NCBI GenBank assembly: GCA_963705505.1
Contig: CAVPJU010000010.1
Span: forward strand, 96,001 to 160,000
Origin: an uncultured bacterium
GTDB lineage: Bacteria > Desulfobacterota_D > UBA1144 > Nemesobacterales > UBA2774
Direction: 5' to 3'
DNA length: 64,000 nucleotides
The translations under genes and the position numbers were made by a program. Shown here in pieces: positions 8,088-15,541 of the stretch. Position 1 is the stretch's first letter. Every line of letters starts with the position of its first letter. The notes beneath the pieces are model-generated. The model was given only the letters and a program-made list of their open reading frames with translations. It had not been told where the DNA came from and searched no databases.

Positions 8088-9337
8088 GATCCATCCTGTT
8101 CATCGCGTTAAAGCTCCTCACCGAAAGGAAAAGGCAGGCTTTCGTCTCGATTGTCGGCGTTGCCATCGGTGTGGCTGCTTTCATAGCGATGAGCTCCGTT
8201 ATGAACGGCTTCCAGATCTACTTCATAAAGCAGGCGGTCGATATAAACGCCCATATCACTCTCAAGGTCGAGGAATCGGATGATCCCGACAGGATACTAA
8301 AAGAGGCCTACGGCGATAATATCGTTGCAGAGGTGCTCGGCTCCAAACCCAAAGACCTGAAGGATAAGATCACAGGCTACAAGCATTTCATAGACAAATA
8401 CGAAAAGGACGACAGGGTGCTCGGCATAGCGCCCCACCTCACGGGGCAGGCAATAATCAATTACGGCACGAAGGAAAAGAGCGCGACACTTATAGGCATC
8501 GACCCCGTTCTCGAGAGGAACGCGTCTGTCGTGGACAATTACATCGAGTTCGGGAACCTGGACAAGATAGTGACCGACAGGAACAGCATCGTTATAGGGA
8601 AGCTCCTCGCGAGGGACCTCGGTATTAAGGAAACCGGGAAGAAAGTGACCCTCGTTTCGCCGAGCGGAGGCATCTATACGCTAAAGGTCGTCGATTTCTT
8701 TAACTCGGGAATAACCAGCATCGACCAGTCGAGGGTTTATATGAACCTCCGCACCCTGCAGGCGATACTCGATAAACCGAATCAGGTGAACGAGCTCATA
8801 ATCAAGGTAAAGGACGTCGATCAGGCGGAGAGCCTCGCGAGCGAGATGTCGGAGGATACGGGGTATTACGCGGAGAGCTGGCAGAGGGCTTTCAGCAACT
8901 TCCTTCAGATATTTAAAATGCAGAACTGGATAACGTACATGATGGTATTCGCAATCCTTATCGTCTCCGCGTTCGGTATCTTCAACATCATGATGATGAC
9001 CGTGCTCGAGAAAAAGAGAGATATAGCGATCCTGAAGGCGATAGGATACGAGGACGGGGAGATAACGAGGATCTTCGTGTTCCAGGGACTCCTCGTGGGA
9101 CTTATCGGCGCGCTCATCGGGTGTCTCCTCGGGTATCTCATTGAGGTATGGCTCGCGTCGCTAAAGTTCGATCTGGTGGGCATAATCAGGGCGAGCGGGT
9201 TCGTTCTCGACAGGAGGCCGCGTTATTTCGTGCTCGGCTTCATATTCGCGATGATATTCGCGTTCTTCGCCTCATTTTACCCCTCCTGGAGGGCATCCAA
9301 GCTCTTCCCGGTGGACATATTCCGGTCAAGCGTATGA
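8084..9337 (+). CDS. ABC transporter permease (LolC/E / MacB-FtsX family)
   Basis: GVAIGVAA N-terminal TM, periplasmic domain, VLEKKRDIAILKAIG motif. Confidence 0.92.
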   Translation: MRSILFIALKLLTERKRQAFVSIVGVAIGVAAFIAMSSVMNGFQIYFIKQAVDINAHITLKVEESDDPDRILKEAYGDNIVAEVLGSKPKDLKDKITGYKHFIDKYEKDDRVLGIAPHLTGQAIINYGTKEKSATLIGIDPVLERNASVVDNYIEFGNLDKIVTDRNSIVIGKLLARDLGIKETGKKVTLVSPSGGIYTLKVVDFFNSGITSIDQSRVYMNLRTLQAILDKPNQVNELIIKVKDVDQAESLASEMSEDTGYYAESWQRAFSNFLQIFKMQNWITYMMVFAILIVSAFGIFNIMMMTVLEKKRDIAILKAIGYEDGEITRIFVFQGLLVGLIGALIGCLLGYLIEVWLASLKFDLVGIIRASGFVLDRRPRYFVLGFIFAMIFAFFASFYPSWRASKLFPVDIFRSSV

Positions 9338-9996
9338 GCGTAATCCTCGAAGGCAGGGACATAAAGAAGTCCATAGGCGAGAGCGCGATACTGAATGGAA
9401 TATCGATCAGTATCGCGAAAGGGGACTTCGTCAGCATCGTAGGGGCTTCGGGCTCGGGCAAGAGCTCTCTCATGTACATACTGGGGCTCCTGGACGCGCC
9501 GACATCAGGGGATGTCATCATAGACGAAAAAAAGATCGATTTCGGCGACGCCAAGCTGCTCTCGCGAATAAGGAACAGGAAGATAGGGTTCGTGTTCCAG
9601 TTCCATTACCTCATTACCGAGCTCACCGCTTATGAAAACATACTCATACCCATGCTGAAGAACGGCGCAAACGACGGGGGCCTCGCGAAGGAGAAGTGTT
9701 ATAATCTCATCGAGAGCCTCGGGCTCAAGGGCAAAGAGGACAGGAAGCCCTATCAGATGTCGGGCGGGGAGCAGCAGAGGGTGGCGATCGCGAGGGCGCT
9801 CGCGAACGACCCCGAAATAATCATGGCCGACGAGCCCACGGGCAACCTCGACTCCAAGAACTCCGCCGTCGTAATGGACGTGTTCCTGGAGCTAAACGAA
9901 AAGGGGAGGGCTATACTCATGATCACGCACGAAATGCACCTCGCCAAACTGACTAAAAAAATATTGGAAATAAAAGACGGTCTTATGGTGAGCTGA
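9334..9996 (+). CDS. ABC transporter ATP-binding protein (LolD/MacB-like)
   Basis: GASGSGKS Walker A, IGFVFQFHYL, MSGGEQQRVAIARAL, DEPTGNLD; ATG overlaps the permease stop. Confidence 0.95.
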   Translation: MSVILEGRDIKKSIGESAILNGISISIAKGDFVSIVGASGSGKSSLMYILGLLDAPTSGDVIIDEKKIDFGDAKLLSRIRNRKIGFVFQFHYLITELTAYENILIPMLKNGANDGGLAKEKCYNLIESLGLKGKEDRKPYQMSGGEQQRVAIARALANDPEIIMADEPTGNLDSKNSAVVMDVFLELNEKGRAILMITHEMHLAKLTKKILEIKDGLMVS

Positions 9997-10022
9997 AGGG
10001 CGAAAGTGCGGAGGGAATTCGT

Positions 10023-11051
10023 TTGAGAGCGATGGTGCTTGAAAAAATAACATCCGTTCACGAAAACACGGAGCCGCTCCGTCTGAAAGACGTACCCGTG
10101 CCTTCCCCCGGCGAGGGCGAGGTGCTGATACACGTCTCTGCGTGCGGGGTGTGCCACACGGAGCTGGACGAGATAGAAGGCAGGACGCCTCCCCCGAAAT
10201 TTCCCGTCATACCCGGGCACCAGGTGGTCGGCACCGTCGAGAAAGCCGGTAAAGGCGTTACTCGCCACAAAGAAGGGGACAGGGTAGGCGTCGCGTGGAT
10301 ATTCTCCTCCTGCGGGAAATGCGGCTACTGCCTCGAAGGGAACGATAACCTCTGTCCCGATTTCATGGCTACCGGAAGGGACAGGGACGGCGGCTATGCG
10401 GAGTATATGATAGCGAAAGAGGACTATGCGTTCCCGATTTCCGGTTCGTTTTCAGACGCTGAAGCTGCGCCCATGCTCTGCGCAGGGGCGATAGGCTACA
10501 GATCACTCAGGCTCACAGGCATTGAGGACGGCCGGAATCTGGGATTAACCGGGTTCGGAGCCTCGGGCCACCTCGTATTGAAAATGGCGCGTTATATGTA
10601 CCCCCGGACGGGGATATATGTTTTCGCGAGGAGCGCGGCCGAAAGGGAGTTCGCGAAGGAGCTGGGCGCTGTATGGGCCGGCGATACCGGGGACCTCCCT
10701 CCCGAAAAGCTCGACGGCATCATAGATACCACGCCCGCCTGGAAGCCTGTAGTCGAGGCGCTTAAGAACCTCAACCCTGAAGGGAGACTCGTCATAAACG
10801 CGATAAGGAAAGAGGACGCAGATAAGGACTATCTGCTCAGGCTCGATTATCCCCTGCACCTCTGGATGGAGAAGGAGATAAAGTCGGTCGCAAATGTGAG
10901 CAGGAGGGACGTCAGCGAGTTCCTCACTCTCGCGGCGGAAGTACCGATAATACCGGAAGTCGAGGAGTACGCGCTCGAAGATGCGAACACTGCGCTTATC
11001 GAATTGAAAGAAGGAAAGATAAAAGGGGCCAAGGTGCTGAGAATGGTATAA
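10023..11051 (+). CDS. Zinc-dependent alcohol dehydrogenase family protein
   Basis: CGVCHTE, PGHQVVG, structural Zn CxxCxxC-x7-C, GFGASG. Confidence 0.93.
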   Translation: MRAMVLEKITSVHENTEPLRLKDVPVPSPGEGEVLIHVSACGVCHTELDEIEGRTPPPKFPVIPGHQVVGTVEKAGKGVTRHKEGDRVGVAWIFSSCGKCGYCLEGNDNLCPDFMATGRDRDGGYAEYMIAKEDYAFPISGSFSDAEAAPMLCAGAIGYRSLRLTGIEDGRNLGLTGFGASGHLVLKMARYMYPRTGIYVFARSAAEREFAKELGAVWAGDTGDLPPEKLDGIIDTTPAWKPVVEALKNLNPEGRLVINAIRKEDADKDYLLRLDYPLHLWMEKEIKSVANVSRRDVSEFLTLAAEVPIIPEVEEYALEDANTALIELKEGKIKGAKVLRMV

Positions 11052-11086
11052 TAAACGTGATACGACTGTTATACGCTTTTTCATTT

Positions 11087-12654
11087 ATGAATTCGTCAAG
11101 AGAAGAAAGCCGCAATAAGTCCGCATACTTCATTCTGAGCGGTCCTGAGTACCGTGACGATATAATTGCGAAAATCAGGAACGATATTTCTATAAGCCCC
11201 GACAGCTCCCGTGACATCAAACAGGTCTTCTTCGATACCTTCGATCACAGGCTTTATAAGAAGGGGTATCTGCTTACTATGGAAGACGGACACTATGCAC
11301 TCCGGAATTCGGCAAATGAAATGGACCTTTCTTCCCCATGCTCAGGTACCGACGACCGCCCCAGATTCTGGCGGGACTTCCCCGAAGGCCGTTTCAGGGA
11401 GGAGCTCCGCCCCGTGATCGATATAAGGGCGCTCATTCCGATTATAAGCGTGAAGAGCAGTGTGAAAGAGCACCATGTGGTCAACGAAGACGAGAAGACG
11501 GTCGTACACCTGAATTTCGAGGAGATCACAGTCGATATCGAGAGCTATGAGAGTAACCCCGTTTATGTGCTGGAAGCGGCGCCCGTCAGGGGTTATGCGG
11601 ATGAATTCAGCGATATGATACGTTACCTCTCGGACATGGGACTCGAGCGGGAGGAGGGGAATATACTCTCTATCGCGCTCAGAGCGGCGGGCAGAAAGAC
11701 CGGGGATTATTCGTCCAAGGTCACCGTCGCGCTCGATCCCGACATGGGTGCGGCGGCCGCGCTCAAGCTAATATTGACCAGTCTGCTTGAAACGATGAAG
11801 AAGAATGAAGAGGGGATAATCCGGGACATTGATACCGAGTTCCTTCACGACTTCAGAGTAGCGGTCAGAAGGACGCGCTCGGCTCTCACGCTCATAAAAG
11901 GCATATTTCCCGACACGATCAAAGAGAGGTTCAAAACCGATTTCGCAGGTATAGGCAAAAAGTCAAACGAGCTCCGCGATCTCGACATCTATCTCCTGAG
12001 AAAAGAGCAGTACATGGAAATGCTCCCGCCCGGACTCAGGCCCGGTCTCGAGAATCTTTTCGAAATAATACGCCTCGAAAGGGAGGACGCGCACCGTGAA
12101 TTCGTGAGAGAGCTCGAGGTCCGATTCATACAGGCACAGCATCGAGTCCTGGGAAAATTTTCTGAACGAGCCGGTTAACAGCGAAGGCGTCACGGAAGCG
12201 GCGGGCGCGCCTGTAATCGGTCTCGCGAAAAAACGCATTCGCAAAAGGTACAAGCAGGCCGTCAGGCTCGGGAAGGAAATAGACGAGAGCTCGCCCGACG
12301 GGGACCTCCACGCGCTCAGGATAGAATGCAAGAAGCTCAGGTATTATCTCGAATTCTTCGAGTCCCTGTTTCCCGAGAGCGAGGTAAGGGACGTCATAAG
12401 GCACCTCAAGATATTGCAGGACAACCTCGGCGATTTTAACGACCTCCGCGTTCAGCAGGACAGGCTCAGAGGCTATATATCGAAGATGGATTCCTCTGAA
12501 AGAGCAGGTTACAGCATCGCGGCTGCGGGCGGGCTCATATCACGGCTCTACGAGACGGCAGAAGGAGATCAGGTCCGAATTCTCTCAGAGGTTCGAGGAA
12601 TTCTCGGGCAGTGAGATGAAAGAGCTGTTTGAAAAATTGTTTTCCGGCAATTAG
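11087..12654 (+). CDS. CHAD domain protein with N-terminal CYTH-like region (two apparent +1 frameshifts, ~12118 and ~12555)
   Basis: EFLHDFRVAVRRTRS, LHALRIECKKLRY and LQDNLGDFND CHAD motifs spread over three frames; removing one base at each site restores a single ORF ending TAG 12654. Confidence 0.88.
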
Positions 12655-12666
12655 AGTATTCACTCT

Positions 12667-13437
12667 ATGATTACGATCGCTCTCTACAGCATGAAGGGCG
12701 GAGTCGGCAAGACCGCCGCCGCGGTGAACCTCGCCTACCTCGCCTCCGCATACGGCTTCCGTACACTGTTATGCGACCTCGACCCGCAGGGGGCGTCTTC
12801 TTATTATTTCCGCATCAAGGCGTCCCGGAGCTTCAATTCGAGCAAGTTCATAAAGGGCGGCAGAAACATAGACGAGAATATAAAGGGGACGGATTATCCG
12901 AAGCTCGACCTGCTCCCCTCCAAGCTCTCATTCCGGAACCTCGACCTCACTCTCGACGAGATGAAGAAATCCAAGTCGCGTCTGAAAATGGTTTTTCAGG
13001 AGATCGAGCACGAGTACGATTATCTGTTCCTCGACTGCCCGCCAGGCATATCGCTCGTCTCGGAGAACGTTTTCGTAGCTGCGGAATATATACTCGTTCC
13101 TCTCATACCTACGACTCTCTCCGTCATGACTTACGAGAAGCTGCTGGAATTTTTCAGGAAGAAGGAATACGACATAGGGAAGCTCTACGTCTTCTTCTCG
13201 ATGGTGGAGTCGAAAAAGAGCCTCCATATAGAGATTATGGAGAAGATCGAGTCGGGCGGAGAGAGAATACTCAGGTCACGCATACCGTACCGCTCTGATA
13301 TCGAGAGGATGGGCGTGTATCGCGAGCCGCTTCCCGCATATCTCCCAAAATCCGATTCGGCAGTGTTCTTCATGGACCTATGGGAAGAGGTCAGGAGGAT
13401 AACCGGGACGAGAGAGACTCAGGAGTCCGAGTCTTGA
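12667..13437 (+). CDS. ParA/Soj/MinD-family ATPase (orphan, no adjacent parB)
   Basis: Deviant Walker A KGGVGKT, DLDPQG, LDCPPG. Confidence 0.93.
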   Translation: MITIALYSMKGGVGKTAAAVNLAYLASAYGFRTLLCDLDPQGASSYYFRIKASRSFNSSKFIKGGRNIDENIKGTDYPKLDLLPSKLSFRNLDLTLDEMKKSKSRLKMVFQEIEHEYDYLFLDCPPGISLVSENVFVAAEYILVPLIPTTLSVMTYEKLLEFFRKKEYDIGKLYVFFSMVESKKSLHIEIMEKIESGGERILRSRIPYRSDIERMGVYREPLPAYLPKSDSAVFFMDLWEEVRRITGTRETQESES

Positions 13438-13465
13438 GGGTTCGAAAAATTAAATACGAGCTGAT

Positions 13466-13937
13466 ATGCCGAACGAGATAGAAAGGAAATTCCTTGTGAA
13501 AGAGATGCCCCGGGGGCTCGGGGATTACCTCGCGAGCGAAATAAATCAGGGCTATCTCGCCGTCACCGACGACGACACTGAGATAAGGATTCGTAAAAAG
13601 GGGGATGGGTATTACGAGACGGTGAAGTCGGGGAAGGGGCTCAAGAGAAAGGAAGTAGAGATCGAGATCGGGGAAAAAGTGTTTAACGCCCTCTGGCCGC
13701 TAACGGAGGGCATGAGAGTGGAGAAGACGCGCTATGACATCCCCTACGGCGGGCACGTCGTGGAGCTCGATGTGTATTCAGGCGGTCTCGCCGGCCTCGT
13801 CGTAGCCGAGGTCGAGTTCGCCGACGGTGGAAGAGAGCGGAAAGTTCACCCCTCCCGCGTGGCTCGGCAGGGAGATAACGGACGACATCAGATACAGCAA
13901 CAGACACCTCGCGCTTTACGGCAAACCTGTCGATTAA
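13466..13937 (+). CDS. CYTH domain protein (triphosphate tunnel metalloenzyme), +1 frameshift ~13827
   Basis: EIERKFL, QGYL, EIRIR, EKTRY, ELDVY, AEVEF; the shifted frame continues PPAWLGREITDDIRYSN to TAA 13937. Confidence 0.9.
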
Positions 13938-13996
13938 TAGGTGCAGAATCTGCACACATATACGGTTTCTCCCTTTCCCCTCAGCCTAACCAATCG

Positions 13997-14172
13997 TGTC
14001 ATTGCGAGCGCAGCAATATTAAGAAAAAAGATGAGATCCTGAATCAAGTTCAGGATGACGAAAGAGAGATCGCCACGGCTATAAGACAGCCTCGCGATGA
14101 CAAAAAAAGTTGTCATTCCCGACACCGATCGGGGATCCAGTTTTTTGATCGCAACTGGTAGCCGCTCCTGCA
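13997..14172. repeat. Cluster of nested REP-like palindromes
   Basis: TGTCATTGCGAG (13997) pairs with CTCGCGATGACA (14091-14102) around GAGATCCTGAATCAAGTTCAGGATGAC; followed by TGTCATTCCCGAC..TCGGGGATCC and a GTAG-like unit on the minus strand (14146-14172). Confidence 0.75.
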
Positions 14173-14229
14173 AGGTGTTGGCGAGATATTTTCAGACGCA
14201 GGTCAAAAAACTACCCTCTTTGACTTAAA

Positions 14230-15541
14230 CTACTTCCCTCCGAACGGGTCCTTCATCTCCGGGTGCCAGAGCTTGAAGTGGTTCTTGTGTACGTCCGTAT
14301 ACGCCCCTTCGGTGTAGTACTTGTCGTAGAATTCGAGGTCTAAATGGTGCGCCTGGAAGACGAGCCTCGTGAACATCGGGATCCAGGAACGCGGGGAACC
14401 TCCCGTAATTCTCATAAACGTATGTGCAGAAATCCTTCACTATCTCTATCCTGACCTCGCTCGGGTGGTACTCGTCCGCGAGCACGCCCCCGGGGTTCTT
14501 GTAAGGGTAGGGGTTGTCCTCCTCCCAGAACCTCCCCCTCATGCGGAGGAATTTGTCCACCGCCTCGCCCATGTCCTTCACATACGGCGGGCATAGCGCC
14601 TCGAACACACCGTCCCTCCCCACCGGCACAGGAGGCTTAGCGCTCCTCACGGTCTTCTCAGGGTTAGTGAACCTGAACCCGAGCCCCTTGTAATCGGGGT
14701 GAACGCCCAGAGCATAGTGCGGAAGAAGTCCAGTAAATGCCCATCCGCCCAATCCCAACCCCTGTAATGCGAGGTTCATGTTCTGGCAAATGAACGCCTG
14801 CTCCACGTTGAGCGTGGTCAGTACCCTCAGCTCAAGATCGAACAGCGACAGCTCGACGTCCTTCCTTATGTATCCCTTCTCTATCCATTTATCGAGACCG
14901 CACGACCTCCCGCCGTTTAACTCGTCGATGATGTTAAACCCGTACTTCGCGCCGAAGTAAATAAAGAGCAGCACCATGTACTCGACCGTCGTGTTCGTTA
15001 CCGGGACGAAGAACGTAGTCCCCGGACGGTTGCAGTTCCACGCGTTGAAATCGAATAATCCCGGCTCGCCCTTCGGCAGATCAGCCCTCCCGTCTTCGAG
15101 CTTTATCAGACTCTTTCTGAAGAGCTCGAGCACCTTCCCGAGCTTCTCCTCGTCCGACATGCCCCGGAAGATCAGGCTCTTCCCTTCTTCGGGCATAACG
15201 TCGTGGAGCCTCACCATATACACGCCGCTGTCGTTCGTGTAGAAGAGCTCCGTAGAATGAGAATTGCAGGAGCAGGGCCAGCTCCTCCCGGTCCATTGGA
15301 ATAGCCAGGAGATTCCGGTACGCGGAAGGTCGCCTAAAGAGAGCCCCGTCATGCCCGTCCCCGCCCAAATCAGGAACGCTTCTTCTAATTCGGAGAGAGG
15401 CACAGGCTCGTGTCGGGACTTGTGACTGAGAGTCCCCTCCTTTATCTCCATCCCGAGGCCGAACCTCCGCGACCGCCTCGTGAATATGGCGTCCATGAAT
15501 CCGAAATTAAGCGCGGCTTCAAGTCCTTCGGGGATGCTCAT
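14230..15541 (-). CDS. Nitroreductase-superfamily-like hypothetical protein (+1 frameshift ~14378)
   Basis: N-terminal RRSRRF FMN-binding-type motif and CQNMNLALQGLGLGGW; C-terminus (PMFTRLVFQAHHLDLEFY) lies in the adjacent frame ending at 14230. Confidence 0.7.

Follow-up and report, generated by a model that had tools for sequence, protein, structure and literature searches.

A ParA-fold ATPase clade encoded beside a polyphosphate-binding CHAD protein is a candidate organiser of polyphosphate granules

We analysed a 64,000-nucleotide (nt) stretch of DNA from an uncultured bacterium of the Nemesobacterales (assembly GCA_963705505.1, contig CAVPJU010000010.1, positions 96,001 to 160,000; hereafter the window) that holds three co-oriented genes, encoding in this order a protein with an N-terminal triphosphate-tunnel (TTM) domain and a long CHAD domain, an orphan ParA-fold ATPase, and a small CYTH enzyme. 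We found that the ATPase forms a clade of its own, separate from chromosomal Soj, and that a CHAD gene accompanies its gene far beyond chance. A role of this ATPase on granules of polyphosphate (polyP), the polymer that the CHAD partner family binds, is likely. A preliminary description of the operon had proposed that the CHAD protein is the cargo adaptor through which the ATPase spaces or segregates polyP granules.

Results

Linkage of the ATPase clade to CHAD and polyP genes

In order to survey the neighbourhood of the ATPase, we used the best 80 of 546 loci, a sample biased to the query's relatives and to its Walker A spelling, whose figures are taken over non-independent kin and are counts, not tests. 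A CHAD gene was present in 53 of the 80 loci, lying directly upstream and co-oriented in 48, convergent in 4, and distant in 1. An upstream, co-oriented CHAD gene in 48 of the 80 loci is far more than chance would give. The clade is spread over about 11 NCBI-labelled phyla (labels of metagenome-assembled genomes (MAGs) are taken as recorded), and in many of these the stop codon of the partner and the start codon of the ATPase gene often overlap. The four convergent loci (L031, L033, L035, and L040) are rearranged with adjacency kept. A ppk1, ppk2, ppx, sixA, Nudix, or CYTH gene was found within 6 kb in 34 of the 80 loci, and loci without a CHAD gene also kept polyP neighbours (ppx in three; ppk1, sixA, and ppk2 in one each).

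Among 41 genomes (the window's own and 40 relatives), 28 carry the clade; all 28 encode a CHAD protein, adjacent to the ATPase in 26, and the 11 genomes that lack CHAD all lack the clade ATPase. Two further genomes (G031 and G037; loci L143 and L144) hold a CHAD gene of about 510-520 codons with a different N-terminal part, beside ppk1-ppx, and have no clade ParA. In the phylum of genome G301, the clade is carried by 48 of 201 genomes, with 28 of the top 30 loci paired. The preliminary description depended on a conserved linkage to CHAD and to ppk, ppx, or sixA, and such linkage recurs across many phyla.

The gene for PPK1 was found in only 2 of the 41 genomes and in none of the 28 clade carriers, and we therefore rejected a dependence of the ATPase on PPK1. 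In contrast, ppk2 is present in 33 of the 41 genomes, often in 2-4 copies: in 27 of the 28 carriers and in 6 genomes without the clade. Judged by gene content, the order may make polyP by PPK2 alone. The clade also occurs on plasmids, with matches in only 9 of 72,556 plasmid records. In Paracoccus marcusii, a plasmid carries pst-phoU-phoB followed by a CHAD-ParA-CYTH-Nudix-CYTH series, and on the conjugative plasmid pMAQU02 of Marinobacter nauticus VT8 (L096) a clade ParA lies near phbB with a CHAD gene 6.5 kb away.

The ATPase forms a clade separate from Soj and MinD

The ATPase is a member of the ParA/MinD family of deviant-Walker-A ATPases. Its KGGVGKT motif retains both lysines, K10 and K15, in 147 of 147 clade rows, and D39 is found in 146 of 147. 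The protein has no N-terminal helix-turn-helix and no evident amphipathic membrane tail; its C-terminal tail is acidic and unstructured in the structural model, which has a predicted local distance difference test (pLDDT) score of 92.5. A fold search with this model returned the ParA/Soj structure 8RAY as the best match (Z 32.3, root-mean-square deviation 2.0 Å, 246 aligned residues, 24% identity), with Soj/ParA alignments at Z 30-32 and Cyanothece McdA among the top matches (Z 28.2, 2.4 Å, 247 aligned residues, 19% identity). All of the best matches were Soj, ParA, or McdA proteins (Z 28-32), and FleN and BcsQ scored lower (Z 25-26).

Although Soj is closest in fold and shares the deviant Walker A, it is not where the clade belongs. 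Clade members are 56-100% identical to each other, and the next ParA matches in the 41 genomes reach at most 33%. We built a tree of 127 rows, in which a long branch separated the 118 rows of the clade from the 9 Soj-like ones, with a support of 100 in the Shimodaira-Hasegawa-like approximate likelihood ratio test (SH-aLRT); this tree was a quick search with SH-aLRT support and no bootstrap, from which 3 truncated ParAs and 10 duplicate loci were left out. A grouping of the ATPase with chromosomal Soj, which would have spoken against the preliminary description, did not occur. The same description had noted that no parB lies nearby, and we indeed found no ParB in the window and neither ParB nor parS beside the clade ParA. 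The genome's own chromosomal-type parA adjoins parB on another contig (C6), and the contig of the window (C10) has a weak second ParB_N match (E 1e-5) at a distance of about 99 kb. A parS consensus, with 3 mismatches allowed, had no match in the window. On the grounds of the separate clade and of the parAB pair elsewhere in the genome, we rejected an identification as chromosomal Soj. MinD/FlhG was rejected as well, with scores of 39-51 bits against NCBIfam MinD cut-offs of 202-213 and no evident membrane helix. MinD, BcsQ, Mrp, RepA/SopA, and PrgP all fell under their curated cut-offs, and no NCBIfam model reached its own.

The partner carries a polyP-binding CHAD domain and a probably inactive TTM domain

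To characterize the protein encoded by the first gene, we used intact orthologues. A model of the L015 orthologue (pLDDT 91.5) showed an N-terminal triphosphate-tunnel domain followed by a long CHAD domain. The N-terminal part, called CYTH-like in the preliminary description, had no Pfam match, but in this model it matched TTM/CYTH structures in Foldseek; a sequence search of the same domain against solved structures gave one chance match only (E 0.44). Active CYTH/TTM enzymes carry an N-terminal, metal-binding ExExK motif. A loose E.E.K pattern occurs within the first 45 residues of only 2 of 39 orthologues, which argues that the TTM domain is probably catalytically dead. A TTM fold without catalysis has been described for Med18/Med20 (PMC4641920).

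Sequence comparison identifies the first gene as an orthologue of the gene for CtCHAD: the intact L007 orthologue matched the crystallised protein (6QV7/3E0S) at E 8e-65. CtCHAD binds polyP with dissociation constants of 147 nM and 1.9 uM, and His253, Arg256, Arg260, Arg296, and Arg418/Tyr419 are needed for this binding (PMC6537752). In 39 aligned orthologues, the columns of His253, Arg256, Arg260, Arg296, and Arg418 are invariant and that of Tyr419 is at least 90% conserved, and the window itself carries the CHAD motifs HDFRVAVRR, LRDLD, and KKLRY. The earlier statement that the CHAD partner family binds polyP is thus borne out by the CtCHAD binding data and by the conserved residues. Compared with CtCHAD, phosins, and YgiF, the protein keeps the polyP-binding residues of CtCHAD and the domain order of YgiF; it differs in that its TTM domain lacks ExExK in most orthologues, and the CtCHAD crystal comprises the CHAD part only. 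In genome G461, ppk1, an open reading frame (ORF), the partner, and ParA lie on one strand, the partner gene overlapping the ParA frame, and the CHAD domain of this partner is identical to crystallised CtCHAD over 315 aligned residues after the first. The ORF between ppk1 and the partner (L178:8534-9379, minus strand) encodes at most 282 residues and has no Pfam match.

The third gene encodes EIERK at its N-terminus. Its intact L001 orthologue matched Nitrosomonas NE1496 (2FBL; E 9e-40), presumably the specific triphosphatase of N. europaea, and by this homology the gene is likely to encode an inorganic tripolyphosphatase. Among the references of PMC4641920 is one on a specific triphosphatase of N. 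europaea.

The operon in the window

The features of the operon are collected in the table below.

Table 1. Features of the three-gene operon, in window coordinates
Feature	Coordinates	Strand	Remarks
Gene 1, TTM-fold and long CHAD protein	11087..12654	+	ATG at 11087, TAG at 12654; about 520 residues if read through; two one-base insertions
Gene 1, N-terminal TTM/CYTH-fold domain	11087..11700 (end approximate)	+	From orthologue model and Foldseek; probably catalytically dead; putative ParA-docking domain
Gene 1, CHAD domain, Pfam-matched part	11771..12470	+	Pfam; polyP-binding module by conserved columns
ParA-fold ATPase, 256 residues	12667..13437	+	Reading frame intact; KGGVGKT; basic stretch at residues 47-67
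Gene 3, small CYTH enzyme	13466..13937	+	Pfam CYTH; EIERK intact; one-base insertion near 13821

The two large pieces of gene 1 each matched Pfam CHAD (E 2e-24 and 8e-26), the ATPase matched AAA_31 (E 2e-35), and gene 3 matched CYTH (E 3e-7). The co-orientation of the genes and the gaps of 12 nt (gene 1 to ParA) and 28 nt (ParA to CYTH) given in the preliminary description hold, but only when three frameshifts that it did not mention are read through. In the assembly, the reading frames of genes 1 and 3 are interrupted, and gene 1 spans three frames; compared with relatives (L001, L002, L003, and L015), single extra bases lie near 12117-12119, 12556-12558, and 13821. Taken at face value, three frameshifts across two of three genes could mark a decaying pseudogene cluster, and a look for RNA records that contain the operon listed none, an uninformative result. 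We consider this highly improbable. The first two insertions are missing, at each site, from close contigs in 3 of 4 independent runs; the third was judged from relatives L001-L003 only, as no close independent contig showed the site. Frame changes were found in 4 of 22 matches to relatives' proteins, two of them in the same CHAD gene, and all fall in one 7-kb stretch of C10 (about 104,900-111,500; window about 8,900-15,500). The affected genes are an ABC-transporter ATPase (9148-9996 region), the CHAD and CYTH genes, and a gene at 14225-15541. All 9 same-genus relatives have a CHAD domain in a single frame. Since two of the insertions are absent from independent contigs and the frame changes cluster in a stretch that includes unrelated genes, the three insertions are probably assembly errors and the stretch is probably poorly polished.

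A zinc alcohol dehydrogenase gene on the same strand (window 10023-11051) stops 35 nt short of the start of the CHAD gene. The two adjoin directly in L004 but are 2-3 kb apart in L003, L005, and L015, and the dehydrogenase gene is probably a local passenger. A promoter scan of the window returned 2 sites against 3.2 expected and was uninformative; one terminator-like stem lies at 14115-14136.

Discussion

A candidate organiser of polyP granules

We propose that the module organises polyP granules at the expense of ATP, by whatever route, a reading whose chances we put slightly below even. The TTM+CHAD protein would coat the granule through its CHAD ring, as has been shown for the family. The ATPase, to judge by its fold and motifs, would dimerise on ATP and dock on the coated granule, a weakly predicted contact that would probably be made via the dead TTM domain as the putative docking surface. 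Cycles of binding and release could then set the place of granules or prevent their fusion, such that daughter cells would inherit them. By homology, the CYTH enzyme would be an accessory that clears tripolyphosphate arising from polyP turnover. The surface over which the ATPase works might be the nucleoid, contacted via a shifted basic patch, or polyP itself. In lineages without the partner, the ATPase might reach the granule directly or via some different protein of the granule, for instance a short CHAD protein or PPK2; in the lineage of the window, polyP would come from PPK2.

The proposal is favoured by the linkage of the clade to the partner, by the polyP binding of CtCHAD, by the polyP genes that recur beside the ATPase where CHAD is missing, and by best fold matches that are all Soj, ParA, or McdA. 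The predicted contact and the covariation of two ATPase residues with the partner lend it weak support. The carriers without the partner, the surfaces of the ATPase, and the way other bacteria space their granules weigh against it. The preliminary description had called for a prediction of the ParA-CHAD complex. We modelled the L001 pair without ATP, as a ParA dimer together with the whole partner protein, and obtained a score of 0.57 against 0.01 for the best control, with at least 81% of contacts agreeing between runs and a partner pLDDT of at least 84. In the calibration, the mark was reached by 116 of 157 solved complexes but by only 2 of 215 mismatches; a score of 0.57, however, lies in the band up to 0.60, which holds only 18 of the 157 solved complexes and both of the passing mismatches. 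The model is thus a weak indication that the ATPase docks on the partner. R49 and D/N76 are found in 89 of 89 partner-adjacent ParAs compared with 9 of 34 and 3 of 34 partnerless ones, respectively, where L084 and L145 were counted as partner-holding (their genomes hold the partner). Positions 211, 184, 47, and 133 show no such pattern. The columns were chosen post hoc and the covariation comprises 3 independent pairs (p 0.25), which makes it suggestive and not significant.

Carriers without the partner are common in Pseudomonadota, in which 62 of 251 genomes carry the clade and only 5 of the 62 have a strong match to the partner N-domain. Of the 62 carriers, 54 have a CHAD gene of some kind, versus 70 of the 189 non-carriers (figures joined from two tables). 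The top 30 pseudomonadotal loci comprise 5 with the partner and 25 unpaired, most of the latter lying beside unrelated genes, among them truA, cysM-like, and RnfH-like ones. A partner alignment search had no match in 9 of 10 stand-alone genomes, and Pfam CHAD had none in 4 of 5 tested, several of these genomes being incomplete MAGs. On these figures we rejected an obligate CHAD adaptor, and in this respect the preliminary description was not borne out. Whole lineages, among them the sphingomonads and an 11-row branch of Pseudomonadota, keep the ATPase alone, and 46 of the 118 clade rows have no polyP gene within 1.5 kb, in some cases owing to contig ends. All 6 strong N-domain copies in Pseudomonadota flank ParA, and 2 weak matches do not. 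Because the strong partner copies all stand beside ParA and many ParAs are partnerless, the partner seems to need the ATPase more than the ATPase needs the partner.

In four of the same top 30 loci (L102, L103, L104, and L106), a PPK2 gene takes the place of CHAD directly upstream, with two domains in L103, and R49 is kept; PPK2 may be an alternative partner. A stand-alone branch (L113, L114, L116, L118-L121, L123-L125, and L127) has a cysteine at position 49 and lies near truA, cysM-like, and RnfH-like genes, and its genomes mostly encode a separate CHAD protein of 310-350 residues elsewhere.

The surfaces of the ATPase were compared with Myxococcus xanthus ParA, whose numbering was mapped via the 8RAY alignment with an offset inferred from its D60A change; counts refer to 147 clade rows, in which a few lineages are over-represented, and 9 outgroup rows. 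In M. xanthus ParA, R238E abolishes nonspecific binding to DNA, Mg and the attacking water are held by D58/D60/N64, and the ParB arginine has an acidic pocket made up of Y81/E82/D110/E117 (PMC12462528). The R238-equivalent is R/K in only 1 of 147 clade rows and D/E in 88, compared with R/K in 6 of 9 outgroup rows, and the Motif-2 asparagine N64 is present in 0 of 147 versus 9 of 9. The D110 position is serine in 131 of 147 rows, a new arginine (R90) appears in 144 of 147, and the Y81/E82 helix is replaced by the basic stretch at residues 47-67 (median net charge +5 versus -1). Overall net charge is positive in 136 of 147 clade rows versus 3 of 9 outgroup rows (median +8 versus -4), the window's own copy being only +3. 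A position equivalent to R189, for which numbering and role follow PMC3778016, is mostly basic (R/K in 112 of 147). Other ParAs bind DNA via other basic residues (PMC9178275). The canonical DNA arginine is lost, yet K/R184 is kept in 147 of 147 rows, R/K219 remains, and the C-terminal DNA-side segment (residues 178-222) has the same median net charge as in Soj (+2), so that DNA binding is possible for the clade. The residue pattern suggests an activator other than an arginine peptide of the ParB type; either polyP itself or an acidic surface on the partner would fit better.

Active positioning by a ParA is also not generally needed for granule spacing. Synechococcus elongatus spaces its polyP granules without McdAB, which contains its only ParA (PMC13081873), and in Pseudomonas aeruginosa the spacing is done by AlgP, the only spacer known for polyP granules (PMC9239181, PMC11894788, PMC13052382).

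Alternative readings

The preliminary description had likened the operon to McdA/McdB. An orphan ParA beside a cargo binder was indeed found in paired lineages, but a walk over the nucleoid is uncertain with the residues for DNA binding and ParB-triggered hydrolysis replaced. A plain copy of McdAB, in which the canonical Soj patch would bind the nucleoid and the CHAD protein would trigger hydrolysis via a ParB-like basic N-terminal peptide, has a like gene logic in its favour, along with the mostly basic R189-equivalent, the invariant K/R184, and the net basic charge of most clade members. It is doubtful, because the Soj DNA arginine and the Motif-2 asparagine are lost and extra basic surface has been gained where the acidic pocket was; moreover, the 39 aligned orthologues of the partner show no conserved basic N-terminal peptide. 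On balance we think it improbable, and we give about the same small chance to a different route to granule organisation, in which polyP is the working surface. MinD binds membrane and ParA binds DNA; the clade ATPase, with basic residues in exchange for the DNA arginine of Soj and the acidic pocket of the activator, would, as an ATP dimer, bind the granule, and the dead-TTM+CHAD protein on the granule would gate its release. This route would explain why about a quarter of the sampled Pseudomonadota keep the ATPase without the partner.

The strongest competitor, though still unlikely, is that the ATPase regulates polyP turnover in a nucleotide-gated manner, somewhat as FleN and BcsQ are regulators. 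It would bind the TTM+CHAD scaffold or PPK2/PPX and, depending on the ATP level, switch synthesis or breakdown. The polyP-enzyme genes near ParA in 34 of 80 loci, the position behind pst-phoU-phoB on the P. marcusii plasmid, the four loci with PPK2 upstream, the absence of N64, and the loss of the acidic pocket for ParB (other residues in place of E82 and D110, and R90 gained) all agree with it. Yet the fold is nearer to Soj, ParA, and McdA than to FleN or BcsQ, the DNA-side segment keeps its Soj-like charge, and no single enzyme is constant as a neighbour. Less probable again, though not negligible, is an ATPase that serves some other cargo and is tied to polyP by an inherited operon without direct contact. 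The rows without a nearby polyP gene, the sphingomonads and the 11-row branch, and the stand-alone genomes without a CHAD match would suit such a history, which is opposed by the retention of the pair in many phyla, with stop and start codons often overlapping, and by the strong N-domain copies found in Pseudomonadota only beside ParA. Scanning 67 of 158 and 55 of 89 candidate neighbour ORFs, we found no other recurring cargo gene or common neighbour.

Relation to known systems

ParA/MinD cargo systems are well established, and the passages of PMC10241942 that we examined treat them with no mention of CHAD or polyphosphate. Like McdA-McdB, the granule organiser proposed here would pair, in the lineages that hold both genes, an orphan ParA-fold ATPase with a cargo-binding protein; unlike it, the partner is a TTM+CHAD polymer binder of 510 residues rather than a small coiled-coil protein, its cargo would be a condensate of a polyanion, the ATPase is often partnerless, and nucleoid binding is only a candidate property. 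The proposed job resembles that of AlgP, PhaF, PhaM, and PhaH, nucleoid tethers that space polyP or polyhydroxybutyrate storage granules (PMC13052382), but these are single DNA-binding proteins with no ATPase. The linkage itself has already been drawn for one genus, Acidithiobacillus, as a folD-ppk-parA-CHAD cluster with no function attached (PMC10892726, PMC6416229). That cluster likewise brings ppk, parA, and a CYTH-CHAD gene together, a likeness of gene order only; its ParA is called a plasmid/chromosome partition protein in the text of those papers, where we saw no granule role proposed. No coupling of ParA to CHAD was found in the passages of the CtCHAD paper that we examined (PMC6537752). 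We likewise found no proposal or test of ParA-driven polyP positioning in the literature, a search whose scope excluded figures, supplements, subscription papers, and the founding CHAD papers, so that an earlier mention is possible.

The mechanism of polyP-granule placement is described as undefined in Escherichia coli, Caulobacter, and S. elongatus in a 2026 preprint (PMC13081873). A review of 2025 raises the question whether cells pay for it with ATP, and notes that this remains to be seen (PMC13052382). The clade offers a named two-gene candidate for that question, carried by 62 of 251 Pseudomonadota and 48 of 201 genomes of the G301 phylum. Cultured carriers exist (P. marcusii, Marinospirillum celere, and Desulfuromusa kysingii), and the polyP-bound structure of the partner has been solved. 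If polyP rather than DNA should prove to be the surface on which the ATPase works, it would add a third kind of matrix to those of the ParA/MinD family and would widen the family's range of action.

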